32,000 nt of DNA. It comes from Clostridium bovifaecis. GTDB lineage: Bacteria > Bacillota > Clostridia > Clostridiales > Clostridiaceae. Numbering within the stretch: the stretch's first letter is position 1; the number at the start of each line of letters is the position of its first letter. Below the pieces are notes generated by a model, which was given only the letters and a program-made list of their open reading frames with translations, searched no databases and was not told the DNA's origin. This document shows positions 973 to 32,000 of this stretch, in pieces. The position numbers were made by a program, and so were the translations under genes. Where the stretch lies: contig CP046522.1 of the NCBI GenBank assembly GCA_009738435.1, forward strand, positions 185,249 to 217,248, in the 5' to 3' direction.

Positions 973-3900
973 GTGACATTATTGGTTCACATAAATGAGA
1001 GAACTATAAGGAACTTAACTAGCAGAACAATATATGAAAGAGGAGAGAGTTATTATCTTAGTGGAAATGTATTAGAAATTGATATAAAGGAACTTAGAGA
1101 AGGAAAAACTGGATTAGATATAATATCACTTAAAGGTAAAATTATGTCCGACGATAGAAAAAAGATATATACCTCTAGTGTTGCTATAACAGAATATGGT
1201 GGAATTATTAACATGGATTGCGATTGCTTGGCATTCACAAATTACTTCACTTCTGTTGGCATATGTAAGCATGTAGTAGCACTACTCTTAAAATACGTGA
1301 AAGAGAAAGATAGAATTATCAATATAAAGGGTTCTGGAGAAATGAAAAAGCTTATAGAAGAGCTAAGTCCTATTTATCAACTAACAGGAGATATTAGAAG
1401 AAATATAAAAATCGAGTATTCTTATGAATATATTAAATATAAAATGTATAACCTCCATGCCTTAGAGCTTAAGGTTGGAGAAAAGTCAACTTATGTTGTT
1501 AAGGGCTTAAAAGAATTTATTGAAACTATGCTAGAAGGAGAAGAGACTCTATATTTTGGAAAGAACTTTACTTATGATCCTAAAGTTCATATTTTAAGTG
1601 ACAATGATAAAAAAATCATGGATATACTCATAGAAGTCTATGAAATGAATGAGAGTCTTAAATATTCGGGAAACTCAAGCCTTTACAATAAGTTTATTAA
1701 AGGAAAGCGGATTTTCCTTACAGATAGTCAAATAAAAAGGGTTTTCCTTCACTTAAAAGATAGGCCTATTGGTTTTAAAGTACAATATGGAGAGAACATA
1801 ACAACATCAATTGTAGATAACGATATACCTTTAGAATATAGCATTTTACAGCAAAATGAAGGTTTTATCTTAAGACAAAATGGGCCTATGACAATACCTA
1901 TTACGAGGGATAAAGAATATATATTTTATAATGATAAGATATATAGGCTGTCGGAGGAACAAAAACAAGTATTTTCTGCCTTCTATAATTCATACAGGGA
2001 TAAAAGAGAAAAATCTATATTCCTTAGCGTAAAAGATAAAGAAGAAATCGCATCCTATGTAATACCTAGTCTGAGAAAAATTAGCTATGAGGTAAAGGTG
2101 GACCCTTTAATAACTCAGGATCTTTATGAGAAGCCGCTTAAAGTAAGTATTTACCTTGACAAAGAAAAAGAAGGGATTAGTGCAAAGGTTAAATGTTTTT
2201 ACGGAGATGTTGAAGTAAATCCTCTTAGTGGAGAAGGTGGAAAAGGGAATAAGGGGATTTTGGTTAGAGATATAATTGGTGAGTCAACGCCTATAAATAC
2301 CCTATTGACCTTAGGATTTCAAAAACAAAAGGATAAGCTTGTATTAAAGGACGAAGAATTTTTAATTGAGTTTATAACAAAGCATATTCAGACTTTAGAT
2401 GAATTAGGAGAAATATATTACTCAGAAGAATTTAAGAATGTACGAGTTCACAACACGCCCACTATAACTTCCAATATAAAATTAAATGAAGAGAATTTAC
2501 TAGAATTTGATTTTAATATTGAAGGGATAAATAAGGATGAGCTTAGGGACGTATTTAACGCAATAAAAGAGAAGAAGAAATACTACAAGCTTAAAAAGGG
2601 CGGTTTCATGCAATTACAATCTGATGAGCTTGAGAGTATATCTAATATGTTTGAGTATCTAAATATCAAAGAATCAGATTTTGAACAGGATAGGCTCCTC
2701 TTATCAAGATACAATGCATTATATATAAACGAGACAGCAGATAATAGAAACTTAGGCATAAAAAAGCATGATAGCTTTAAAAAACTCTTATCGGATGTAA
2801 AAGGCATGAAAGATAAAAATTTTGCGCCTAGTGATAATATCAACAAAATAATGAGAGAGTATCAAAAGTTCGGATTTAAGTGGCTAAAAACCTTGTCTAA
2901 ATGCGGCTTTGGAGGAATACTTGCAGATGAGATGGGACTTGGAAAGACTCTGCAGACAATAGCATTTATAGAATCTGAATTAAAAGAGAAAGAGGGAATG
3001 CCTTCTCTTATAATAGTGCCAACGTCCCTTGTATACAATTGGCAAGATGAGATTGAAAGATATGCACCGAACTTAAAAGCGCATATAATATCAGGAGATA
3101 AAAAGGAAAGGGTGTCACGGATTAAGGAAGTAACTAACTATGATGTAATTATAACGTCTTATCCTCTTATTAGAAGAGATATAGATGAATATCGAGATTT
3201 AAATTTTAAATACTGCATTTTAGATGAAGCTCAAAATATAAAAAATCCTAACTCTATGAATGCAAGAGCTGTAAAAGAGATAAAAGCAGAAGGGTATTTT
3301 GCTCTAACAGGAACGCCAATAGAAAACTCTTTGACAGAACTTTGGTCTATATTTGATTTTATTATGCCCGGATACCTGATGAACCACAATAGGTTTCAGC
3401 AAAAATATGAGATTCCAATATCGAAGAATAACAACAAGGTTGCCTTAGAAGAATTAAATTATCATATAAAACCATTTATACTAAGAAGATTGAAAAAAGA
3501 TGTAATAAAAGAATTACCACCTAAAATCGAGCATAAAATTTTGGTGGAAATGAGTAAGGAGCAAAAAAAAGTTTACGCTGCATATTTAGAACAATCTAAA
3601 GATGAGATAGAAAGTGAGATTCAAGAAAATGGGTTTAAGAAAAGCAAGCTAAAAATATTGGCAGTTCTTACTCGGCTTAGACAGATATGCGATGATCCTT
3701 CTACATTTATAGATAACTTTAAGGGTGAAAGTGGAAAAATTGAAGCTCTAGAGGATTTACTAGAGGAGAGCATAAGCTCTGGTCATAGAATTTTGTTATT
3801 TTCCCAATTTACTTCCGTGTTAAAAAATATTGAAAAGAGACTAAAGGAAGATTCCGTAGAGTATATGTATCTAGACGGAAAAACGAAAATGGAAGAAAGA

Positions 3901-4251
3901 TTGAGTATGGTTAAAGAATTCAATCGAGGTAAGGGTAAAGTATTTCTAATATCTCTAAAAGCCGGAGGAACAGGACTTAATTTAACTGGAGCTGATACAG
4001 TAATACATTTTGACCCATGGTGGAACCCAGCAGTGGAAGAGCAAGCTACAGATAGAGTTCATAGGATAGGTCAGGAAAATACTGTAGAGGTTATAAAGCT
4101 TATAGCCCGGGGAACTATTGAGGAAAAGATTTATAATCTTCAGCAAAAAAAGAAAGAAATAATAAACAGTATAATGGATTCAGAGGTTAAAGAGGAGAGC
4201 TTAATTTCTCAAATGAGTGAGGAAGAAATTAGGAATCTGTTAATTGGATAG
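973..4251 (+). CDS. SWIM zinc-finger / SNF2-family (RapA/HepA/YwqA-like) DEAD-like helicase
   Basis: N-terminal SWIM CxC...CxH signature (MDCDCLAFTNYFTSVGICKHVVALL). SNF2 motifs ILADEMGLGKTLQ (I), ILDEAQNIKN (II), ALTGTPIENS (III) and helicase-C LISLKAGGTGLNLTGADTVIHFDPWWNPAVEEQATDRVHRIGQ. The track start is GTG at 973; TTG at 982 is better spaced from the GAGGTG Shine-Dalgarno, so the start is uncertain by 3 codons. Confidence 0.9.
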   Translation: MTLLVHINERTIRNLTSRTIYERGESYYLSGNVLEIDIKELREGKTGLDIISLKGKIMSDDRKKIYTSSVAITEYGGIINMDCDCLAFTNYFTSVGICKHVVALLLKYVKEKDRIINIKGSGEMKKLIEELSPIYQLTGDIRRNIKIEYSYEYIKYKMYNLHALELKVGEKSTYVVKGLKEFIETMLEGEETLYFGKNFTYDPKVHILSDNDKKIMDILIEVYEMNESLKYSGNSSLYNKFIKGKRIFLTDSQIKRVFLHLKDRPIGFKVQYGENITTSIVDNDIPLEYSILQQNEGFILRQNGPMTIPITRDKEYIFYNDKIYRLSEEQKQVFSAFYNSYRDKREKSIFLSVKDKEEIASYVIPSLRKISYEVKVDPLITQDLYEKPLKVSIYLDKEKEGISAKVKCFYGDVEVNPLSGEGGKGNKGILVRDIIGESTPINTLLTLGFQKQKDKLVLKDEEFLIEFITKHIQTLDELGEIYYSEEFKNVRVHNTPTITSNIKLNEENLLEFDFNIEGINKDELRDVFNAIKEKKKYYKLKKGGFMQLQSDELESISNMFEYLNIKESDFEQDRLLLSRYNALYINETADNRNLGIKKHDSFKKLLSDVKGMKDKNFAPSDNINKIMREYQKFGFKWLKTLSKCGFGGILADEMGLGKTLQTIAFIESELKEKEGMPSLIIVPTSLVYNWQDEIERYAPNLKAHIISGDKKERVSRIKEVTNYDVIITSYPLIRRDIDEYRDLNFKYCILDEAQNIKNPNSMNARAVKEIKAEGYFALTGTPIENSLTELWSIFDFIMPGYLMNHNRFQQKYEIPISKNNNKVALEELNYHIKPFILRRLKKDVIKELPPKIEHKILVEMSKEQKKVYAAYLEQSKDEIESEIQENGFKKSKLKILAVLTRLRQICDDPSTFIDNFKGESGKIEALEDLLEESISSGHRILLFSQFTSVLKNIEKRLKEDSVEYMYLDGKTKMEERLSMVKEFNRGKGKVFLISLKAGGTGLNLTGADTVIHFDPWWNPAVEEQATDRVHRIGQENTVEVIKLIARGTIEEKIYNLQQKKKEIINSIMDSEVKEESLISQMSEEEIRNLLIG

Positions 4252-5780
4252 GCTCTGTAAAAAGTTTTGTGTAAACTTAATATAAAAACTCCTTCTTGTT
4301 AATAATCGAAATAACAATATATTACAGGGAGGAGTTTTTTATATGGGAAACATGTCGGAAGAATTATTGAGAGAATATATTAAGGAACAGGACTTTACTA
4401 GTGTTAATGATATACTGAATGGATTAAAGGAAATGTTTAGAGATGTTTTACAGGAGGCTTTGGAAGCTGAAATGGATGAAGCCCTAGGCTATGGAAAGTA
4501 TAATACTGAAGAAAAGGCTATTGATAATAGTAGAAATGGTTATTCAAAGAAGACTGTTAAAACAGAATTAGGTCCAGTAGAAATTAACATACCAAGAGAT
4601 AGGAATGGCGATTTTGAGCCTAAGATAGTACCGAAACATCAGAGGACAGTTAATGGCATAGAAGACAAAATACTTTCTTTATATGCAACTGGAATGACAA
4701 CTAGAGATATATCAGAGCAAATAAAGGTACTATACGGAGTAGAGGTTAGCGCAGACACTGTGTCTAATATAACAAATAGGATACTGCCACTGGTATCAGA
4801 ATGGCAGAGTAGGCCATTGGATAGCATATATTCCTTTATATTTATGGATGCTATACACTATAAGGTAAGAGAAGATAAACAAATTGTAGTTAAGGCTGCC
4901 TATGTAGTTGTAGGTGTAACCTTAGATGGTCATAAAGAAGTTTTAGGCATATGGATAGGAGCTAATGAAAGCAGTAAATTCTGGTTATCTGTATTAAACG
5001 ATCTTAAAAATAGAGGTGTTCAAAATGTACTTATCTTTTGTGTTGATGGCTTAAACGGCTTTAAGGAAGCTATAGGAGCTACCTTTCCGTTCTCAAAGAT
5101 ACAAAGATGTATAATACACCAAATAAGATCAAGTATGAAGTACATTCCATATAAAGATAGAAAAGCTTTTGTTAGCGACTTAAAAGGAGTGTATGGTGCT
5201 GTTAATGAAGAAGTTGCTATGGAAAATTTGCTAGCGCTAAAGGGAAAATGGTCAGATAGGTATCCCAGTGCAGTTAAAAGCTGGGAGGACAATTGGGATA
5301 ATCTAAGCACATTTTTCGCATTCCCAAATAACATACGTAAAATAATATATACTACAAACATAATAGAGAGCTTAAATAGCCAGTTTAGAAAAGTTACAAA
5401 AACAAAATTGATCTTTCCAAACGACGAGAGTCTCTTGAAGATGCTCTACCTAGCGGTTGAACGAATAAGTAAAAGGTGGATCAGAAACTACCCAGATTGG
5501 GATTTAGTTATTAATCAGCTTAATATAGTTTTCAGCGAAGTGTTACACCAAAAGGCGCAATAAAAAAGAACCCTAAGTGAAAATGCATTGATATCAGAGC
5601 TCTTCAATATTTTTTCCCTAGGTATATTATTGCCACAAATCGGAGATAATATACCTAGAGAATAAAAGGTTTATTAACCATAATTTTCCGTAAACTGATA
5701 AAAGTTCAGCAAACTAGATTATTAAATCAAAGGTTATTTTCAATAAGAAAATTAGAATACACAAAAATATTTACAGCCTC
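4251..5780 (+). mobile_element. IS256-family insertion sequence (about 1.53 kb) with imperfect terminal inverted repeats and 8-bp target duplication
   Basis: Left end is GGCTCTGTAAAAAGTTTTGTGT. The reverse complement of the right end is GAGGCTGTAAATATTTTTGTGT (17/22 identical). Direct repeat ATTGGATA at 4243-4250 and 5781-5788. A single transposase ORF lies inside. Confidence 0.85.
4343..5563 (+). CDS. IS256-family (Mutator-type) transposase
   Basis: 406 aa with the typical IS256 layout: N-terminal ...EAEMDEALGY..., NGYSKKTVKTELGPVEINIPRDRNGDFEP, catalytic-region FMDAIHYKVRE and CVDGLNGFKEAI, and C-terminal YTTNIIESLNSQFRK. Strong RBS AGGGAGGAG upstream. Confidence 0.93.
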   Translation: MGNMSEELLREYIKEQDFTSVNDILNGLKEMFRDVLQEALEAEMDEALGYGKYNTEEKAIDNSRNGYSKKTVKTELGPVEINIPRDRNGDFEPKIVPKHQRTVNGIEDKILSLYATGMTTRDISEQIKVLYGVEVSADTVSNITNRILPLVSEWQSRPLDSIYSFIFMDAIHYKVREDKQIVVKAAYVVVGVTLDGHKEVLGIWIGANESSKFWLSVLNDLKNRGVQNVLIFCVDGLNGFKEAIGATFPFSKIQRCIIHQIRSSMKYIPYKDRKAFVSDLKGVYGAVNEEVAMENLLALKGKWSDRYPSAVKSWEDNWDNLSTFFAFPNNIRKIIYTTNIIESLNSQFRKVTKTKLIFPNDESLLKMLYLAVERISKRWIRNYPDWDLVINQLNIVFSEVLHQKAQ

Positions 5781-14437: not shown

Positions 14438-15964
14438 ATGCCATATACAAGGATATTATTTTCAGCTTTAGTAGGAGCTGTAATAGGTTACATAACAAAT
14501 TGGTTAGCTATAAAAATGTTATTTAGGCCTCATGAAGAAAAGAAAATCTTCGGAATAAAGGTACCATTCACACCAGGACTTATTCCAAAGGAGCAGAAGA
14601 GAATTGCGAAAAGTGTAGCGGAGGCCATAGGAAATCATCTTTTAACTAGTGATACTATGCTTGAAGCGTTAAGAAATAATGGAATAGATAAGAAATTTAA
14701 AAATTGGATAGAAGAAAAGGTTCTTGAAATAGGAAGAAGAAGCATTTCTATAGGAGAACAAATTAAGATTATAGTAGGAGAAAGGTTCAATAGCTTTGTA
14801 GAATATGCAAAAGCTAAGTCATCAATGCTTTTAATATCATTTATAAAAAAAGATAAGTTTAAAAAAGAGTTGGAAGACTTAATACTAAATCTTTTAAAGA
14901 AGGAGCTCTCTAAAGATCCAAAACTCATACTAGAAAGTGATTATTACAAGGAAATAAGAAACACAATAATAAAAAAATCAAAGGAATATAAGGACTCAGA
15001 AGAATTTAAAAATAATATAGAGAAAATTATAGAAGACAGAATGTCAAGTCTTGAAGATATGGATAAATCATTGCAAGAGGTTATACCAGTTGGACTTGTA
15101 AGCACAATAAAGGTTTACGTTTATAGCAAAAATTATGATATAGCTATGGGGATTAAAGACATACTAAAAGATGAAAAAATGCAAGTTAAGCTAAAGAGAG
15201 CTTTATCAGATATGATAAGCAGCAATGTTAATTCAATGATTGCTATGTTTTTAAATCCTGATACAATTTATAATAAACTATCTCCAGCTATAGATGATTA
15301 TCTAGACAAAGAAGAAAATCAAAGAGAAATAGCCCTATTGATAAATGATTTAATTGATAAGATATTAAAAACTAAAGTTAAAGACATTCTTTCAAATCTT
15401 TCCGAAGAGAGTAAAGAAAGAAATGCAAAGGCGCTTGGAGATATAATTATAGACAAGGTGATAGATGAGGCTCTTATTAAGGATATAATATCTACTTTAG
15501 AGAATAGGGTTAAAGACAAAGAAACTATAGAAGAATTACTTTCAGAGCTTAATATAAACTCAGAAGAGACTTTAGTAAAATTCATAAGAACTAAGATTAA
15601 TGACATTGTTAGCAGCAAAGAATTAGAAGAAAAGATAGAAAAGTATACAAATTCAACTATAGATAATCTATTAGACCTTAAGATTTCAGAATTAGCAGAA
15701 GGGAAAGAAGATAAGATATCAAAAATAGCCTCAAAAACTTCAGAAGGCTTATTTAATAGATTTGTAACAAATAAAGCAGCCGATTTTATAGAAGCTTTAG
15801 ATATAAGAAGAATAGTTGAGGATAAGATTAATTCCTTTGAAGTTTCTTTCGCAGAGCAAATAATATTAGAAATTGCAAGTAAAGAATTAAGTGCTATTAC
15901 TTGGCTTGGAGCACTTCTTGGATTTATCATGGGACTTTTATCTGCCATTATGGCAGCAATATAA
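14438..15964 (+). CDS. DUF445-family membrane protein
   Basis: N-terminal GAVIGYITNWLAIKMLFRPHEEK...PFTPGLIPK signature of DUF445, a long K/E-rich helical middle, and a C-terminal TM WLGALLGFIMGLLSAIMAAI. Confidence 0.78.
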   Translation: MPYTRILFSALVGAVIGYITNWLAIKMLFRPHEEKKIFGIKVPFTPGLIPKEQKRIAKSVAEAIGNHLLTSDTMLEALRNNGIDKKFKNWIEEKVLEIGRRSISIGEQIKIIVGERFNSFVEYAKAKSSMLLISFIKKDKFKKELEDLILNLLKKELSKDPKLILESDYYKEIRNTIIKKSKEYKDSEEFKNNIEKIIEDRMSSLEDMDKSLQEVIPVGLVSTIKVYVYSKNYDIAMGIKDILKDEKMQVKLKRALSDMISSNVNSMIAMFLNPDTIYNKLSPAIDDYLDKEENQREIALLINDLIDKILKTKVKDILSNLSEESKERNAKALGDIIIDKVIDEALIKDIISTLENRVKDKETIEELLSELNINSEETLVKFIRTKINDIVSSKELEEKIEKYTNSTIDNLLDLKISELAEGKEDKISKIASKTSEGLFNRFVTNKAADFIEALDIRRIVEDKINSFEVSFAEQIILEIASKELSAITWLGALLGFIMGLLSAIMAAI

Positions 15965-26494: not shown

Positions 26495-26637
26495 TAGGGT
26501 GATTAGAGATTAATTTATTTTGTATAATGAATATTGTATGTAAATTTAAGTTTGTGCAAATCTACATACAATATTGATTTCCCCGGATTCTTAAGTATAT
26601 AATGAATAATATTAAAATATATAAGGGGGATAGGCCT

Positions 26638-28278
26638 ATGCATTCTACAATGAAGAGACGATTATTTACATGGTTTTTAATAGTTTCAGTAGTGCCATTA
26701 CTATTAATTGGGGGTATCAGCTATTATTTTATTTCAAGTGAAATATCAAAGCAGACTGAGGAGAGAATTACAGATATAAATAATGGTATCAAAAACATGG
26801 TAGATACTCAACAAAAGGTTTTATCCTTGTGGCTTGAAAGTGCAGCAGTCTCCTTTAAGTTTAAGTTATCTACATTGGGGGAAAGTCGCTTCGATTACAA
26901 TCACATGGTTGATTTAGCGGGACATCATATGCCCACTTGGTATATAGGTGATCAGCTAATGACTAATGACTACACATTAGTAGATCAGCTTATTGGGGAG
27001 GAAAATTTAGATGCAACAATATTTATGTTTCACAACAAGGAATTCGTAAGAGTAAGTACAAGCGTAAGAAAAGATGATGGTAAAAGAATAATGGGAACTT
27101 TGATCAATTCTGGACCAGTGTTCAATAAGATAGTCAATGGTCAAAGCTACCTCGGTAGAGCAAATGTTGAGGGAATATGGCACGCTACTATTTACGAACC
27201 TATTTTGGACAAGTCTGGAAAGCTTATAGGAGCCTTTGTTCTTGGAAGACCAGAAAAGGGATATGAAATAATCAATGCAATAAAGAAAATTTCTATAGGA
27301 GATAGTGGATACGTTTTTATAACTGATTCTAAAGGAAATGCCATAATTCATCCTTCTATGAATGGGAAAAGCATAATTGACTATCCTTGGATACAAGAAA
27401 TAATCAAAAATAAAGAGGGAAAAGTAAGATATTCTTTTAATGGACAAAACAAAATAGCGTATTATACATATTACGAGCCTTGGGATTGGTATATAATCAC
27501 TGGGGGTAATGAAACAGAAATATTTAGTACTAGAAGTAAGCTTTACAGCATTATTTTAGTTACTTTATTAATCATAGTTTGTATTGCTCTTTTTATAGCT
27601 TATGCACTGTCAAGATCATTCTCTAAGCCGTTAGAAGAGCTTATGGGAGTTATGAAAGAAACTCAAGACGGGAATCTGTCTCCAAAGCTAAAGTATGTTA
27701 ATAATGATGAATTTGGAATCTTAAACATTACCTTTAATAATATGCTTAGTAATATTTCTATTTTAATAGGCAGAATATTGTTTAATTCTAGTAATCTGAA
27801 GGAAGCTTCAAAAATGCTTAAGGTAGATATAGATCAATCAAAAGAGGCATTGAGAGGAATTGAACAGGGAGTGGAAGGACTAAAAGCATATGGAGGCTCT
27901 AGTTTAATATATAAACCCAACTATGCTATAAACAGTTATAATGAAGTTATTCTTAATCAAATTAATCAATTGAGATTTGAGTTAAATGAAGTAATAGTAA
28001 CCAAAGATTATGATAGTCTTGAAAATATTAAATTGCAGCTTAATGGATTAGAAGAATCAATACTAGACTTAGATGATACCGAAAGTATTAGTAAAGAAGA
28101 AAATTTATTAGAGCAGCCTATATCATATGAAAATAAAATTGATAATTTAAATATAGAAGTTCAAAAGCTGAAGCTGCTCTTAGAAAATATATCTGCATCA
28201 GGCAATACCTTAGATGATGTTGCTCTAGCACTTGATAATCATGTAAATATTTTTAAAATAGGCAATGAAGAAGAATAG
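26638..28278 (+). CDS. Membrane sensor: TM - Cache-type extracellular domain - TM - HAMP - short coiled-coil tail (MCP-like but without the MCP signalling tip)
   Basis: TM1 FTWFLIVSVVPLLLIGGISYYFI. Cache-like motifs ATIFMFHNKEFVRVSTSVRKDDGKRIMGT and GYVFITDSKGNAIIHPS. TM2 IILVTLLIIVCIALFIAYAL. HAMP PLEELMGVMKETQDGNLSP...DEFGILNITFNNMLSNI. The tail ends ...ALDNHVNIFKI and has no [19 protein letters not shown]-type motif. Start chosen at ATG 26638 after AAGGGGGA. Confidence 0.8.
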   Translation: MHSTMKRRLFTWFLIVSVVPLLLIGGISYYFISSEISKQTEERITDINNGIKNMVDTQQKVLSLWLESAAVSFKFKLSTLGESRFDYNHMVDLAGHHMPTWYIGDQLMTNDYTLVDQLIGEENLDATIFMFHNKEFVRVSTSVRKDDGKRIMGTLINSGPVFNKIVNGQSYLGRANVEGIWHATIYEPILDKSGKLIGAFVLGRPEKGYEIINAIKKISIGDSGYVFITDSKGNAIIHPSMNGKSIIDYPWIQEIIKNKEGKVRYSFNGQNKIAYYTYYEPWDWYIITGGNETEIFSTRSKLYSIILVTLLIIVCIALFIAYALSRSFSKPLEELMGVMKETQDGNLSPKLKYVNNDEFGILNITFNNMLSNISILIGRILFNSSNLKEASKMLKVDIDQSKEALRGIEQGVEGLKAYGGSSLIYKPNYAINSYNEVILNQINQLRFELNEVIVTKDYDSLENIKLQLNGLEESILDLDDTESISKEENLLEQPISYENKIDNLNIEVQKLKLLLENISASGNTLDDVALALDNHVNIFKIGNEEE

Positions 28279-28321
28279 AAGCCTATAAGCATAGATTATT
28301 GGGGGTGGGTAATATTTGAAA

Positions 28322-29680
28322 ATGAGACAAATAATGATAACTATCTTTCCGAGATGTTTCTTTGGAGATACTATAGATGATATAGTTGAAAGAGTAAAAA
28401 GAGAAGATTTGGCCTTTATAGTAGTAGTAGATGAAAATAATAAATATAAAGGTGTAATAGAGAGTAGATATATTTTAGAATATACAATGAATAACTCAGT
28501 AAATAGAGATGATTCCATAAGGAAGCTAGTAAAAATGATTCAACCTGTTTCACAAGATGATGATATCAGGACTTTAAAAAATATAGAGGAAGATATTAAT
28601 GTAATTCCCGTAGTTAATTCAAGCCTCAATGTATTAGGATATATAAGTCTAAATAGTATTCTTAAAAGTATAGATAAAATTAATAATAAAAGCAATTCTA
28701 TATATTTAGGTACTAATAAAGATAACTCTAAGATTAAAGCAAAATACACTATTGACCACTTTATTGGAGAAAGTAAGCCTATTCTTCAGTTGAAAAAGAG
28801 AATTTTAGCTGCTGCAAAGACTAAAGCCACGGTTTTAGTCACGGGAGAAACAGGTACAGGGAAAGAATTGGTAGCCCATGCAATAACAAGTCTTGGAGAT
28901 AGGCGTCATCAGCCTTTTGTACGACTTAACTGTGCAGCTATTCCAGAAAATCTACTGGAATCGGAATTGTTTGGATATGAGGAAGGGGCTTTTACAGGAG
29001 CTCTTAAGGGCGGAAACTCAGGGAAGTTTACTCAAGCAAATCATGGAACGATTTTTTTAGATGAAATTGGAGATATGCCTCTTGCTCTTCAAGCCAAAAT
29101 TCTAAGAGTTCTTCAAGAAAGAGAAGTTGAAAAAATAGGGGGAACATGTCCTGTGCCTATTGATATAAGGGTTATTGCAGCTACCCATACAAATCTAATC
29201 GAACTAGTTAAGCAGAATAGGTTTAGACAAGACTTATTTTACAGGCTGCATGTTATACCAATAAACGTTCCACCTTTAAGAGATCGGAAAGAAGATATAC
29301 CTTTGTTGGTAGGGCATTTTATTCAGCAACTTTCTGATGAAATGGAAATGGAAAAGCCTATCATTGAAGTATCATTTTTAAAGGCTTTAATAGAGTACCA
29401 CTGGCCAGGAAATGTAAGAGAGCTTCTAAATGTGCTTCAAATGGCATTAAGCTTTTCAGAAGGACGATTAACAGATGATACATTAAAAGAATATCTTTTA
29501 TTGAATGGTAAAGATAGCGGTATAGATAAAGATGATTTAAAGTCGGTTACAAATGAAGTGGAAAAGGATAAGATTATAAATGCCATGAAAATCTATGGTG
29601 GTAATAAAATAAAGGTTGCAAGTGCCCTTGGAATTTCTAGGAGTAACTTATATTATAAAATGAAAAAATATAACCTCTAA
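28322..29680 (+). CDS. Sigma-54-dependent transcriptional activator (CBS pair - AAA+ - Fis-type HTH), no receiver domain
   Basis: N-terminal CBS-like pair (...FIVVVDENNKYKGVIE...; ...VIPVVNSSLNVLGYISL...). Walker A GETGTGKE, GAFTGA motif (EEGAFTGAL), Walker B IFLDEIGD, R-finger region RFRQDLFYRL. C-terminal HTH KVASALGISRSNLYYKMKKY. Start is either TTG 28316 or ATG 28322. Confidence 0.9.
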   Translation: MRQIMITIFPRCFFGDTIDDIVERVKREDLAFIVVVDENNKYKGVIESRYILEYTMNNSVNRDDSIRKLVKMIQPVSQDDDIRTLKNIEEDINVIPVVNSSLNVLGYISLNSILKSIDKINNKSNSIYLGTNKDNSKIKAKYTIDHFIGESKPILQLKKRILAAAKTKATVLVTGETGTGKELVAHAITSLGDRRHQPFVRLNCAAIPENLLESELFGYEEGAFTGALKGGNSGKFTQANHGTIFLDEIGDMPLALQAKILRVLQEREVEKIGGTCPVPIDIRVIAATHTNLIELVKQNRFRQDLFYRLHVIPINVPPLRDRKEDIPLLVGHFIQQLSDEMEMEKPIIEVSFLKALIEYHWPGNVRELLNVLQMALSFSEGRLTDDTLKEYLLLNGKDSGIDKDDLKSVTNEVEKDKIINAMKIYGGNKIKVASALGISRSNLYYKMKKYNL

Positions 29681-29701
29681 AGTTTGCTATAAATACTGTA
29701 C

Positions 29702-29741
29702 AAAGTGGCTATAAAATAACATAGCCACTTTTAGATTTTTT
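29702..29741 (+). terminator. Intrinsic terminator after the sigma-54 activator gene
   Basis: AAAGTGGCTAT / ATAGCCACTTT perfect 11-bp stem, 8-nt loop, then TAGATTTTTT. Confidence 0.7.
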
Positions 29742-29946
29742 GAAAAGTTCTAACCATCATTTATCTTCTCATTTCAATATGTTAGCTAAAATTTATATTA
29801 AATACCTACATTCTTAAATTCCTATTAAGCTATTTTTCAAAAATTAACACAGTTTTTCCAAAGATTAGAACAGAATATGTCCAATATGTTTATGTGGCTT
29901 ATGTAGAAATCCATGGATAGCCTGCTTATGAGGTTTATAAAAAAGT

Positions 29947-29962
29947 TGGCATATAAAATGCA
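29947..29962 (+). promoter_or_regulatory. Sigma-54 (-24/-12) promoter upstream of the CoA-transferase genes
   Basis: TGGCAT-ATAAA-ATGCA. GG at 29948-29949 and GC at 29960-29961, with the canonical 12-nt G-to-G register of TGGCAC-N5-TTGCA. 56 nt upstream of ATG 30018. Confidence 0.65.
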
Positions 29963-30017
29963 TAATTATAATATTGGATGGAAGTAATATATAGATATTT
30001 TTGGAGGTGTATGAAAA

Positions 30018-30734
30018 ATGCCAAATATTCAGACGGCACAGGAAGCAGTAAAAAATATTAAAGATGGTATGAGAATTATGACAGCAGGTTTTTTAGGAGT
30101 AGGTGCTCCTTTAAAAACCATAGATGCATTGGCAAATACCAATGTTAAGGATCTTACACTTATTCAAGCTGTATCAGCTCAACCAGGAGAAACCCATGAT
30201 ATTGGTGTACTAGTAAAGAATAAGCAAATAAAAAAATTTATAGGCGCACATATCGGAACATGTCCTGAAGCTCAAGAACAATATAAAGAAGGTACATTAG
30301 AAGTAGAATTTATTCCTATGGGAACTGTAGTAGAATGTATAAGGGCTGCTGGAGCTGGACTTGGTGCTGTTGTAACTCCAACTGGACTTGGAACTGAAGT
30401 TGAGGAAGGAAGAGATAAAATTACAGTAGGTGGAAAAGAGTATTTAGTATTTCCACCACTTAAGGCAGATGTTGCAATAATTAAAGGTTATAAGGCTGAT
30501 AAGCTTGGAAACATCATATATAGAGGCACAACTAAAGGAACAAATACAATTATGGCACTTGCTGCTGATTTAGTTATAGCTGAAGTAGATGAAATTGTTG
30601 AAGTTGGCGAAATTCCACCTGATAGCGTTGGCACACCAGGTATCTTAGTAGATATAATTGTTCAAGGTGATTCTTTAGAAGAGAGAAAACAATACTTTGA
30701 AGATTTATGGGTAAGAACTAAGAAAATGAGATAG
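30018..30734 (+). CDS. Family-I 3-oxoacid/acetate CoA-transferase, subunit A
   Basis: Typical subunit A pattern: ...IKDGMRIMTAGFLGVGAP..., ...FIPMGTVVECIRAAGAGLGAVVTPTGLGT..., ...AIIKGYKADKLGNIIYRGT.... RBS GGAGGTG. Confidence 0.88.
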   Translation: MPNIQTAQEAVKNIKDGMRIMTAGFLGVGAPLKTIDALANTNVKDLTLIQAVSAQPGETHDIGVLVKNKQIKKFIGAHIGTCPEAQEQYKEGTLEVEFIPMGTVVECIRAAGAGLGAVVTPTGLGTEVEEGRDKITVGGKEYLVFPPLKADVAIIKGYKADKLGNIIYRGTTKGTNTIMALAADLVIAEVDEIVEVGEIPPDSVGTPGILVDIIVQGDSLEERKQYFEDLWVRTKKMR

Positions 30735-30746
30735 GGGGATAATAAT

Positions 30747-31400
30747 ATGGATAGTAGAGAGATAATTGCAAGAAGAATTGCAAAAGAATTTAAAGATGGT
30801 ATGGTTGCTAATTTAGGATTTGGTATGCCAACTATGGCTGCAAACTATTTACCAGATGGAGTAAAAGTAACACTTCAGACTGAAAATGGAGCTTTGCAGT
30901 TTGGGCCGACTCCTAAGGCTGGAGAATCTGATCCGGACCTAGCGAATTCTGGTGGAGCGCCTATCACTTTATTACCGGGGGCATCAACCTTTGAAATGGA
31001 TCTTTCCTTTGCTATAATAAGAGGTGGGCATGTTGACATAACTGCTTTGGGTGCACTAGAGGTTGACCAAGAAGGAAATATTGCTAATTGGAAGATTCCA
31101 GGAGTATTTGCACCTGGTATGGGAGGTGCTATGGACCTTTTAGTAGGAGCAAAATATGTAATAGCAGCTTTAAATCATAATGACAAAAAAGGTAATTCAA
31201 AAGTTCTAAAGAAATGTACATTGCCTTTATCCGCTGCAAAGTGTCTTGATCTTATAATAACAGATAAAGCTGTTATGGAGGTTACAGATAAGGGACTAGT
31301 ATTAAAGGAAGTAGCTCCAGGAGTAACTGTTGATGAAGTAATAGAGCGTACTGATGCTGATTTAATAATAGATGATAATGTTAAAGAAATGGAAATATAG
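30747..31400 (+). CDS. Family-I CoA-transferase, subunit B
   Basis: Catalytic-glutamate motif in LQTENGAL (the SENG-type motif of family I subunit B), ...GGAMDLLVGAK.... 12-nt gap after subunit A, with RBS GGGGGA. Confidence 0.88.
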   Translation: MDSREIIARRIAKEFKDGMVANLGFGMPTMAANYLPDGVKVTLQTENGALQFGPTPKAGESDPDLANSGGAPITLLPGASTFEMDLSFAIIRGGHVDITALGALEVDQEGNIANWKIPGVFAPGMGGAMDLLVGAKYVIAALNHNDKKGNSKVLKKCTLPLSAAKCLDLIITDKAVMEVTDKGLVLKEVAPGVTVDEVIERTDADLIIDDNVKEMEI

Positions 31401-31549
31401 TACGTAGAAGAAAATGAGACAAGTATCTTTATTGAATGGAATAGGAAGGTAGGTTCTGAAGAACACACTCGATTGTTTAAAAACCCAGCACTTTCAAAAG
31501 TGCTGGGTAAAGTTATGTATTAACCTTTATAAAACTTACAAGATGAAAA

Positions 31550-31683: not shown

Positions 31684-32000
31684 TTACACGGCAAGATCAT
31701 CTTTACTGAAGGATTCAACTTTAACTTGTTTTATTAAAGGCCACTTGTCATAGAAGGTATTCATGTATAGGAATGGCATCATAAATATAAATTGCCCAGC
31801 AATTAGGCCTAGCGTAGAATACCCTAGTCCCATACTATTACTTCCAAATGGAAGTTTTGTATATGTCTTCATCCAAATTAGTCCTAAGATTGTTCCTAGT
31901 ATCACTACAATTGCAAGTCTTATTAAAAATCTTGTTCCTGAACTCTTTACCTTGTCTTCTCCAGGAAAATCGAAAAATTGATGATGCCATAAAAGGGCTG
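31684..32000 (-). CDS. C-terminal part of an integral membrane protein (N-terminus outside window)
   Basis: The minus-strand frame stays open from the stop at 31684 to the window edge (in-frame codons from 31998). The sequence is hydrophobic: ...RLAIVVILGTILGLIWMK...LGLIAGQFIFMMPFLYM.... The GTG start in the track is probably internal. No family recognised. Confidence 0.5.
   Translation of the reverse strand, partial: ALLWHHQFFDFPGEDKVKSSGTRFLIRLAIVVILGTILGLIWMKTYTKLPFGSNSMGLGYSTLGLIAGQFIFMMPFLYMNTFYDKWPLIKQVKVESFSKDDLAV

Follow-up and report, generated by a model that had tools for sequence, protein, structure and literature searches.

How does a membrane receptor that ends in a helical tail, with neither a kinase nor a chemoreceptor tip, pass on its signal, and how is a neighboring sigma-54 activator that has no receiver domain controlled? 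These questions are raised by a locus in a 32,000-nucleotide (nt) stretch of low-GC (~32%) chromosomal DNA of clostridial type, from Clostridium bovifaecis (contig CP046522.1, positions 185,249 to 217,248 of the forward strand; the whole stretch is called the window below). Four plus-strand genes lie between positions 26638 and 31400 of the window, coding for a sensor, a sigma-54 enhancer-binding protein (EBP) with a CBS pair at its N-terminus (CBS-EBP), and subunits A and B of a coenzyme A (CoA)-transferase. On balance, we lean towards a module that works without His-Asp phosphotransfer, controls the use of short-chain carboxylic acids and includes direct contact between the sensor and the EBP. 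The features of the first two genes are as follows.

26638..28278, plus strand: sensor gene, 546 amino acids (aa); transmembrane segment (TM) 1 at residues 9-27, Cache_3-Cache_2 at 32-300, TM2 at 305-323, HAMP at 324-373, helical tail at 374-546
26731..27537, plus strand: Cache_3-Cache_2 ectodomain (Pfam, 3.6e-58) with the candidate carboxylate site T127/R138/Y186
27607..27756, plus strand: HAMP domain (Pfam, 9.4e-9)
27757..27900, plus strand: conserved proximal tail helix, residues 374-421, motif N-I/T-S-L-L-I-G-R-I..NS.KLKEAS..L..DI..S...L.GIE, column identity 0.60-0.75
27901..28128, plus strand: variable tail middle, residues 422-497, two shorter helices and two low-confidence loops, column identity 0.21-0.42
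28129..28260, plus strand: conserved C-terminal tail helix, residues 498-541, motif NKINNL.VE..KLKLLL.NISSSA.SLDDIA..LD..VN.FKI, column identity 0.65-0.76
28316..29680, plus strand: sigma-54 EBP gene, 454 aa; CBS pair at residues ~1-125, AAA+ with GAFTGA at 150-316, lid at 322-395, HTH_8 at 414-452

The sensor is a receptor with a family-specific tail

A preliminary description of the window, made from its letters alone, had read the sensor as TM, Cache-type ectodomain, TM, HAMP and a tail of ~170 aa, and Pfam together with the two hydrophobic segments (residues 9-27 and 305-323) gave the same layout with a tail of 173 aa. No output domain was detected in these last 173 residues with Pfam or NCBIfam, and the entire sensor had no Pfam match to MCPsignal, HisKA, HATPase_c, or GGDEF at E<=1. 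For comparison, the same MCPsignal model (PF00015) matched the methyl-accepting chemotaxis protein (MCP) encoded at 2-757 in the window at 1.6e-47. When 54 family members were scanned singly (Pfam, E<=10), HAMP was detected in all 54, and MCPsignal, HisKA, HATPase_c, and GGDEF were not among the families listed. The earlier claim that the sensor is without the CheA/CheW-binding tip, a kinase, GGDEF, or another recognizable output domain thus holds for the members scanned, the profile searches returning Cache and HAMP only.

A homologue search returned 62 clusters of 533-564 aa (and one 493-aa partial sequence among them) with 43-91% identity and 90-100% query coverage, all of which had Cache_3-Cache_2, with HAMP detectable or not, and no further domain. 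The hosts are Clostridium, Sporomusaceae and other Negativicutes, Fusibacter, Anaerosolibacter, and Dethiosulfatibacter, with Natroniella and Syntrophales as further hosts from a genome scan. Across the family, conservation of the ectodomain is high, and positions in the tail are among the 62 invariant alignment columns; no histidine is invariant in the tail and nothing in it is DHp-like. The sensor is, then, a member of a small conserved family of membrane receptors of the dimeric type, in which a family-specific tail replaces the kinase or chemoreceptor tip.

The sensor gene is linked to the gene of a CBS-type activator

Loci were gathered by exact-protein look-up, by scanning one genome per species with the sensor as seed, and by scanning metagenomes with the EBP N-terminal domain as seed, and linkage was counted over distinct tail-bearing sensor loci with sufficient flanking DNA. 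This survey of synteny, on which the preliminary description had staked its proposal, revealed a CBS-EBP as the immediate neighbor in 24 of 24 distinct sensor loci, compared to none of the 65 related Cache-HAMP loci that end in kinase or MCP domains (one of which had an unrelated EBP 4 kb off). Gene order is not fixed: the sensor precedes the EBP at 13 loci (gaps down to 12 nt), follows it at six (with a 17-nt overlap in the locus designated L087), and is divergent from it at five. Since the pairing survives these three arrangements, across classes of Bacillota and in Syntrophales, there is strong evidence that sensor and EBP work together. Mirror-tree analysis revealed that sensor and EBP distances co-vary (r = 0.7-0.9), indicating joint inheritance of the two genes. 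Genes for kinases, Che proteins, or cyclases did not recur in the neighborhoods examined, and at the loci inspected that had called genes, the only other recurrent neighbors of the sensor were CoA-transferase operon genes; a transporter accompanies the CoA-transferase in many loci, not in all. In our judgment, the sensor and the EBP probably act in one pathway.

Neither partner is equipped for phosphotransfer

The EBP, 37 nt downstream of the sensor gene (put at ~40 nt, on the same strand, in the preliminary description), matched in Pfam a CBS pair (two stretches), Sigma54_activat (2.4e-68), AAA_lid_14, and HTH_8 (1.5e-13); GAFTGA is present in the translation, and neither REC nor PAS was detected by Pfam. 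A profile built on residues 1-160 matched many PDB structures of CBS pairs over profile positions 1-117 (E down to 4.5e-24), in agreement with the architecture first read from the sequence. The NCBIfam models of AtoC, NtrC, and PrpR matched the EBP only from about residue 135 on and below their cut-offs. In the family alignment of the N-terminal domain, C14, Y44, G46, V99, and G108 are invariant and P98 nearly so; F11 is invariant in one alignment (A4) and nearly invariant in another (A3). C14, the cysteine encoded at 28355-28357 in the first of the two CBS motifs, does not vary among 51 family members, sensor present or not, and may have a ligand or redox role.

As the sensor has no recognizable output domain and the EBP no receiver, a His-Asp phosphorelay between them is excluded. 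The preliminary description had concluded that neither partner can use phosphotransfer, and the domain content together with the lack of an invariant histidine in the tail bears this out. It had also known of no characterized example of the pairing; the literature on this pairing, on CBS-type EBPs, and on sigma-54 control of CoA-transferases likewise held general statements only and did not describe the pairing with a sensor. New here are the sensor family, its linkage to the CBS-EBP, the natural tail deletions, and the conserved carboxylate contacts.

A sigma-54 promoter and candidate activator sites precede the CoA-transferase operon

Downstream of the EBP gene lie, in order, a terminator, upstream repeats, a sigma-54 promoter, and the two CoA-transferase genes:

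29702..29741, plus strand: intrinsic terminator 3' of the EBP gene, 11-bp stem then T run
29844..29873, plus strand: candidate upstream activator sequence (UAS), direct repeats TTAACACAG and TTAGAACAG with starts 21 nt apart; conservation footprint
29947..29962, plus strand: sigma-54 (-24/-12) promoter TGGCATATAAAATGCA, sole consensus match in 32 kb
30018..30734, plus strand: CoA-transferase subunit A (3-oxoacid/acetate CoA-transferase family); Pfam CoA_trans 1.7e-54, TIGR02429
30747..31400, plus strand: CoA-transferase subunit B; TIGR02428, T-E-N-G motif in the translation

Sigma-54 promoters have GG at -24 and GC at -12 with fixed spacing (TGGCAC-N5-TTGCW). On both strands of the window, TGGCATATAAAATGCA was the only match to TGGCAYN5WTGCW (0.09 expected), and nearly all related loci have a -24/-12 element ahead of their CoA-transferase operon. 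When five Clostridium intergenic regions were aligned (alignment A5), two conserved islands stood out in otherwise diverged DNA, namely the promoter and the repeat pair, whose members start at 29844 and 29865, ~75-100 nt upstream of the -24 element. The 9-mer repeat TTARMACAS, taken alone, occurs in the window at least as often as expected by chance, so the UAS call is founded on footprint and position. At the same place, other lineages carry TGTCCAA/TTGGACA or repeats of the GTACA type. The terminator, the TGGCAT-N5-ATGCA promoter, and the CoA-transferase genes named in the preliminary description were all recovered: the terminator at 29702-29741, the promoter as a unique match, and subunits A and B above their cut-offs (TIGR02429, 193 bits, cut-off 128.5; TIGR02428, 288.6 bits, cut-off 243.55). 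The AtoD equivalog model scored 223.6, below its cut-off of 315, so that the assignment reaches the family level and not the substrate. A 2025 survey noted sigma-54 control of 3-ketoacid CoA-transferases and did not mention the sensor.

Sigma-54 promoters also occur before the sensor/EBP genes themselves, at the positions listed here by locus:

L004:9943, L012:7782, L013:7941, L017:7942, L015:6519, and L087:7922: sigma-54 promoter before the sensor/EBP genes

In Fusibacter, L015, and L087, this second promoter comes with similar repeats, which implies positive autoregulation of the sensor and EBP there; the window has only a sigma-70-like candidate in front of the sensor. In C. homopropionicum, we observed a second sigma-54 promoter (TGGCATACAAAGTGCA, L006:14800) after four repeats (GTGTGCTAA / TTAGTACA / TTAGCACAC). 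The gene downstream of this promoter (14928-15638 of the same locus) is a second one resembling CoA-transferase A, which suggests that one EBP controls two operons in this organism.

The tail is conserved at its two ends

The ~40 residues that follow HAMP and the last ~44 residues of the sensor are well conserved (column identity 0.60-0.75 and 0.65-0.76, respectively), and the 75-80 residues between them vary (0.21-0.42). In chemoreceptors, the hairpin tip is the most conserved part. The conservation of the sensor tail is inverted with respect to chemoreceptors, the hairpin turn being the least conserved part of the protein. In AlphaFold2 (AF2) models of the whole sensor (predicted local distance difference test score, pLDDT, 77.8) and of the tail alone (76.5), the second HAMP helix runs unbroken into a long tail helix (358-421), followed by helices at 430-455 and 458-476/487 and a final long helix at 496-536/544. 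Scores below 50 are found at 420-433 and 479-495, roughly as mirror images about a central break at 456-457. Two sensors from Syntrophales (L018:3077-4591 and L019:8001-9524, both from metagenome-assembled genomes) are without the stretch matching window residues ~432-499 (about 70 residues); both conserved helices are retained and a 12-residue loop joins the proximal to the C-terminal one. The simplest reading would be that the tail is an antiparallel hairpin with a helix-loop-helix under HAMP as its functional core and a dispensable distal extension; this predicted topology draws on single-chain AF2 secondary structure and on the Syntrophales deletions. The two Syntrophales sensors also have an acidic C-terminal extension of ~30 residues beyond the F-H-I motif.

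A profile of the tail was searched against one representative per 50% cluster of ~15 billion proteins (1.84 billion representatives). Twelve matches were obtained at E<=1e-10, each of them either a protein of <=553 aa with the architecture of the sensor or a fragment of one; no Rosetta-stone fusion of the tail to another domain was present among these representatives. The tail is thus a family-specific module, fused to no other input or output.

The preliminary description had called the sensor MCP-derived, and this origin is plausible at best, with evidence on both sides. In its favor, the tail profile matched two true MCPs collinearly (E ~8e-4 in the search of 1.84 billion proteins); the C-terminal motif S..L..A..L....F-K/E-V/I is common to the sensor tail and MCP C-termini, which agrees with the likeness first noticed between the end of the tail and the last helix of an MCP; the full-length AF2 model aligned best with models of B. 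subtilis MCPs (E = 4e-17); and the indels are of hairpin type, the Syntrophales variants losing the whole tail middle. On the other side, the tail profile matched no MCP among PDB sequences (generic coiled coils only, E >= 0.006), hhalign of the tail against the MCP of the window gave a probability of 0.3, and a Foldseek search with the tail-only model gave nothing significant (best hits an Smc arm, E=0.045, and a T. maritima MCP, E=0.09). The Cache-HAMP part, moreover, is as close to kinases as to MCPs (33% identity to histidine kinases, 30% to MCPs); the alignment to MCPs extends ~40 residues past HAMP and that to the nearest kinases (P0063-P0068) is limited to sensor residues 5-371. A histidine-kinase origin of the tail was considered and not adopted, the tail having nothing DHp-like and no conserved histidine.

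A small carboxylate is the likely ligand

Residues 110-214 of the sensor align with the formate-binding sCache structure 8PY0 (3e-13). The formate contacts of 8PY0, T100, R111, and Y160 (PMC11804620), align with T127 (T or S in the family), R138, and Y186 (both invariant) of the sensor. Among characterized chemoreceptors with a Cache_3-Cache_2 ectodomain, PacF binds formate (PMC11804620) and Pseudomonas receptors bind C3 acids (bioRxiv 10.64898/2026.04.10.717710). Since the contact residues are conserved and the characterized ligands of this domain are of this kind, a small carboxylate is the likely ligand class. The operons carry further genes at some loci: in Natroniella sp. ANB-PHB2 the order is sensor, EBP, MFS transporter, CoA-transferase A/B, Hbd (3-hydroxyacyl-CoA dehydrogenase), Crt (enoyl-CoA hydratase), and thiolase, and Hbd and Crt are also found in the operons of Fusibacter, L087, and L105. 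One carrier of the module, C. homopropionicum, can use 2-, 3-, or 4-hydroxybutyrate for growth. We infer that C4 hydroxy or oxo acids (3-hydroxybutyrate, acetoacetate) would fit the operon contents best as ligand.

A proposed route from receptor to promoter

In the model that we put forward, an external short-chain acid would bind the sensor ectodomain, and HAMP would relay the conformational change into the conserved hairpin directly below it. The hairpin would bind the EBP directly and alter its assembly or its ATP hydrolysis, and the EBP would then open the sigma-54 promoter of the CoA-transferase genes. The sensor would be an anti-activator that holds the EBP in check at the membrane until ligand comes, and the CBS pair would probably add an intracellular input of its own. 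The anti-activator direction is favored over an obligatory co-activator, if not securely: restraint fits better with an EBP that persists at some loci without the sensor and with its target operon intact, as described below. In its strict form, the model is a one-step transmembrane route in which the hairpin of a Cache-HAMP receptor gates an AAA+ EBP directly, with no kinase, receiver, or second messenger, and the CBS pair supplies a metabolic input from inside the cell; we put this form forward tentatively, as one that could well be right and that we would place just short of probable.

Several known systems bear on the model. In E. coli, AtoS/AtoC turns on atoDAEB upon a short-chain oxo acid signal, AtoS being a histidine kinase and AtoC having a receiver domain. 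The present pair resembles it in joining a membrane sensor and a sigma-54 EBP to a two-subunit CoA-transferase operon for acetoacetate or short-chain acyl groups and, as proposed, to a short-chain oxo acid, and the NCBIfam models of AtoC and AtoD are partial matches to our EBP and CoA-transferase. It differs in having no HisKA, HATPase_c, or REC, the input of the EBP being a CBS pair and the sensor ending in a predicted helical hairpin. NifL-NifA, PspA(BC)-PspF, and HrpV-HrpS are sigma-54 activators set by the non-covalent binding of a partner, without phosphorylation, and offer the best functional analogy for the proposed mechanism; the Psp signal is likewise membrane-born. NifL, PspA, and HrpV, however, are not transmembrane Cache-HAMP receptors, NifA, PspF, and HrpS have no CBS pair, and the binding in our case is a proposed one. 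By this analogy, the sensor-EBP pair would be a variation on partner-controlled sigma-54 activators.

PacF and the Pseudomonas C3-acid receptors share with the sensor the ectodomain family, the T/R/Y contacts, and the order TM-Cache-TM-HAMP followed by a helical region, which in the sensor is predicted to be antiparallel; unlike the tipless, activator-linked sensor, they have a complete MCPsignal domain and use CheA/CheW. In Myxococcus xanthus, the Che3 pathway acts on the EBP CrdA through a CheA kinase and a receiver domain. There too, a chemoreceptor-type sensor ultimately controls a sigma-54 activator, whereas the present module has no CheA kinase and no receiver. Mlc-PtsG, MalT-MalK, and PutA, in which substrate availability sets how far a membrane protein titrates a regulator, are a conceptual precedent; the membrane partners there are transporters or enzymes and the regulators are of the sigma-70 type, unlike here.

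Bacterial transmembrane signaling is usually sorted into kinases, chemoreceptors, cyclases, and anti-sigma factors, and input-only receptors are mostly unexplained. The sensor family offers a tractable case: its genomic partner is obligate, the promoter and the upstream site are defined, there is a plausible class of ligand, and nature supplies variants, with sensor-less activators on the one hand and tails cut down to a minimal hairpin on the other. If the contact is real, it would show an AAA+ activator reading HAMP output, and the pair would be a compact module that links a sensor for short-chain acids to a promoter in anaerobes without phosphorylation, of relevance to the regulation of fermentations of the hydroxybutyrate and ketone-body type and to synthetic biology in clostridia. 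The family would also correct the assumption that clostridial CBS-type sigma-54 activators are purely one-component systems.

Activators without a sensor and the rival readings

The strongest rival holds that the CBS-EBP is a self-sufficient one-component regulator whose CBS pair binds an adenosine-containing metabolite (acyl-CoA/CoA, an adenine nucleotide, or c-di-AMP), the sensor acting elsewhere in the pathway, for example on a transporter. CBS pairs commonly bind adenosyl ligands, as befits the PDB relatives of this domain, and second messengers are also possible. The rival draws on EBPs that stand alone. Five distinct EBP loci have no sensor within 6-8 kb (L086; L088/L093/L094; L089/L090; L092; L095/L106), and in C. 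algoriphilum (L104) there is none among the genes called within 6 kb. Searches for remnants of the sensor beside sensor-less EBPs found none (E<=0.01 in L086 and L088, E<=1e-4 in the metagenome loci). In a neighbor-joining tree of the EBPs (midpoint-rooted, no outgroup; L104 and L106 left out), the sensor-less metagenome sequences and L088 form one clade nested among paired EBPs. C. estertheticum (L086, CP086147) is a separate and recent sensor loss; downstream of its EBP, the intergenic DNA is almost the same as in L007, where the sensor is present. On the upstream side of this EBP, at a distance of a few kb, are two transposase genes (L086:1-4695), and the sensor may have been lost there by rearrangement mediated by insertion sequences.

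Wherever the contig extends far enough, the sensor-less EBPs are still beside a CoA-transferase gene, either two-subunit or of the acetyl-CoA hydrolase/transferase type, and UAS, promoter, and operon have all been retained in the sensor-less clade as well as in C. estertheticum. Genes of the acetyl-CoA hydrolase/transferase family (~433 aa) adjoin sensor-less EBPs at L090:4603-7205, L092:8690-9994, and L104:7917-9218; an MFS transporter precedes the gene in L090, and in L104 one is encoded on the other strand, farther downstream. Taken as a whole, the CBS-EBP family seems to serve CoA-transferase operons specifically. Since the operons are kept without the sensor, the constant partnership is that of EBP and CoA-transferase, to which the sensor is an accessory input. 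Dependence of the EBP on the sensor everywhere was therefore not borne out, one EBP clade and one recent loss being sensor-less beside CoA-transferase operons.

Further observations join these loci in weighing against control of the EBP by contact with the sensor. The five sensor-less loci indicate that the EBP can be regulated or active without it, and the CBS pair is equally conserved in sensor-paired and sensor-less EBPs. Mirror-tree partial correlations over 18 sub-region/domain pairs gave -0.19 to 0.25 for tail and CBS, with no specific signal. Paired and unpaired EBPs differ at seven positions, six in AAA+ and lid (E178D, V202M, P210A/S, D283N, R322, P348) and one in the CBS pair (M7), and these may be mere clade markers, as all the sensor-less sequences compared are from one clade. 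With the class-specific residues lying mostly in AAA+ and lid, by this one-clade comparison, docking on the CBS pair in particular, which the preliminary description had envisaged, is not favored. At four sensor loci (L012, L013, L018, L019), there is no two-subunit CoA-transferase within the flanking DNA examined; the same contact residues occur in formate receptors, so the ligand of the sensor is guessed from context; and whether the host genome encodes sigma-54 lies outside what the window can show.

Receiver-less EBPs of clostridia, whose input domains include CBS, have been counted as one-component systems, with no mention of the sensor (Nie et al., 2019). A self-sufficient EBP nevertheless leaves the sensor unaccounted for: it is with the EBP at all 24 loci, in three gene orders and with reading frames that overlap or lie close, its other recurrent neighbors are CoA-transferase operon genes only, and a transporter is not found at all loci. 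Because the tail has no enzymatic domain, the sensor needs a protein partner. We regard the self-sufficient EBP as rather unlikely, if the most serious contender, and retain direct contact as the preferred reading.

A second possibility is that the sensor acts on a partner encoded elsewhere, be it a kinase, a Che-like protein, or an enzyme that makes a messenger, and affects the EBP only indirectly, for example by a ligand of the CBS pair. The MCP-like topology and C-terminal motif of the tail agree with it, as does the ability of CBS pairs to bind second messengers. It is made improbable by the missing MCPsignal tip in every member, the low conservation of the hairpin turn, the lack of a recurrent kinase, Che, or cyclase gene nearby, and the lack of a receiver in the EBP.

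That the sensor is a very diverged, short chemoreceptor for taxis toward the acid, merely co-located with a catabolic regulator, draws on the alignment of the full-length model with B. subtilis MCP models, on the weak collinear matches to two MCPs, and on an arm length, read from secondary-structure breaks, about that of the shortest MCP class. The CheA/CheW tip motif is absent, with no MCPsignal at E<=10 in 54 members, the conservation is inverted relative to MCPs, the Syntrophales variants are without the whole distal half, and the strict linkage to the EBP is left unexplained; this reading is very improbable. A decaying, functionless remnant of an MCP or kinase gene, for which only the missing output domain speaks, is strongly disfavored and the least probable of all, given intact full-length reading frames in Clostridium, Negativicutes, Fusibacter, Natroniella, and Syntrophales, 62 invariant columns that extend into the tail, and tail ends with column identities of 0.6-0.76.

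Other features of the locus and the window

Two further features flank the four genes:

26574..26603, plus strand: sigma-70-like promoter candidate of the sensor-EBP operon, TTGATT-18-TATAAT; weak, from a consensus scan with 10/12 matches
31483..31508, strand not assigned: inverted repeat between the CoA-transferase operon and a convergent membrane-protein gene; T run on the minus strand only, uncalled by the terminator scan

Sigma-70-like sites in the region are no more numerous than in shuffled sequences, so the candidate at 26574..26603 is weakly supported. The open reading frame of the sensor opens at 26602; the ATG at 26638 is preferred, as a GGGGGA ribosome-binding site and the N-termini of homologues agree with it. 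Between a DUF3888 gene and this promoter candidate, at 26534-26571, is a 9-bp inverted repeat (TTGTATGTA ... TACATACAA, 20-nt spacer), which could be an operator or an RNA hairpin.

Adjoining the CoA-transferase genes, on the minus strand at 31684-32000 and running off the end of the window, is the partial gene of a ~415-aa membrane protein, which had no match in Pfam, NCBIfam, or PDB sequences. It is full length at L001:14913-16163(-) and L003:6906-8153(-), has at least eight hydrophobic segments, and adjoins the CoA-transferase genes in the window, L001, L003/L009, L004, L006, L007, and L017. Proteins of 406 and 419 aa without a Pfam match occupy the equivalent place in L086 and L087, the likeness being one of size and position. 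At some loci, its gene is the first in the sigma-54 operon, where others carry an MFS transporter, and the protein may represent an undescribed family of carboxylate transporters. At the other end of the window, 973-5563 is an insertion sequence inside an otherwise housekeeping region (metG, tatD, ksgA), with a gene for an SNF2-family helicase (1092 aa) followed by one for a Mutator-family transposase (406 aa).

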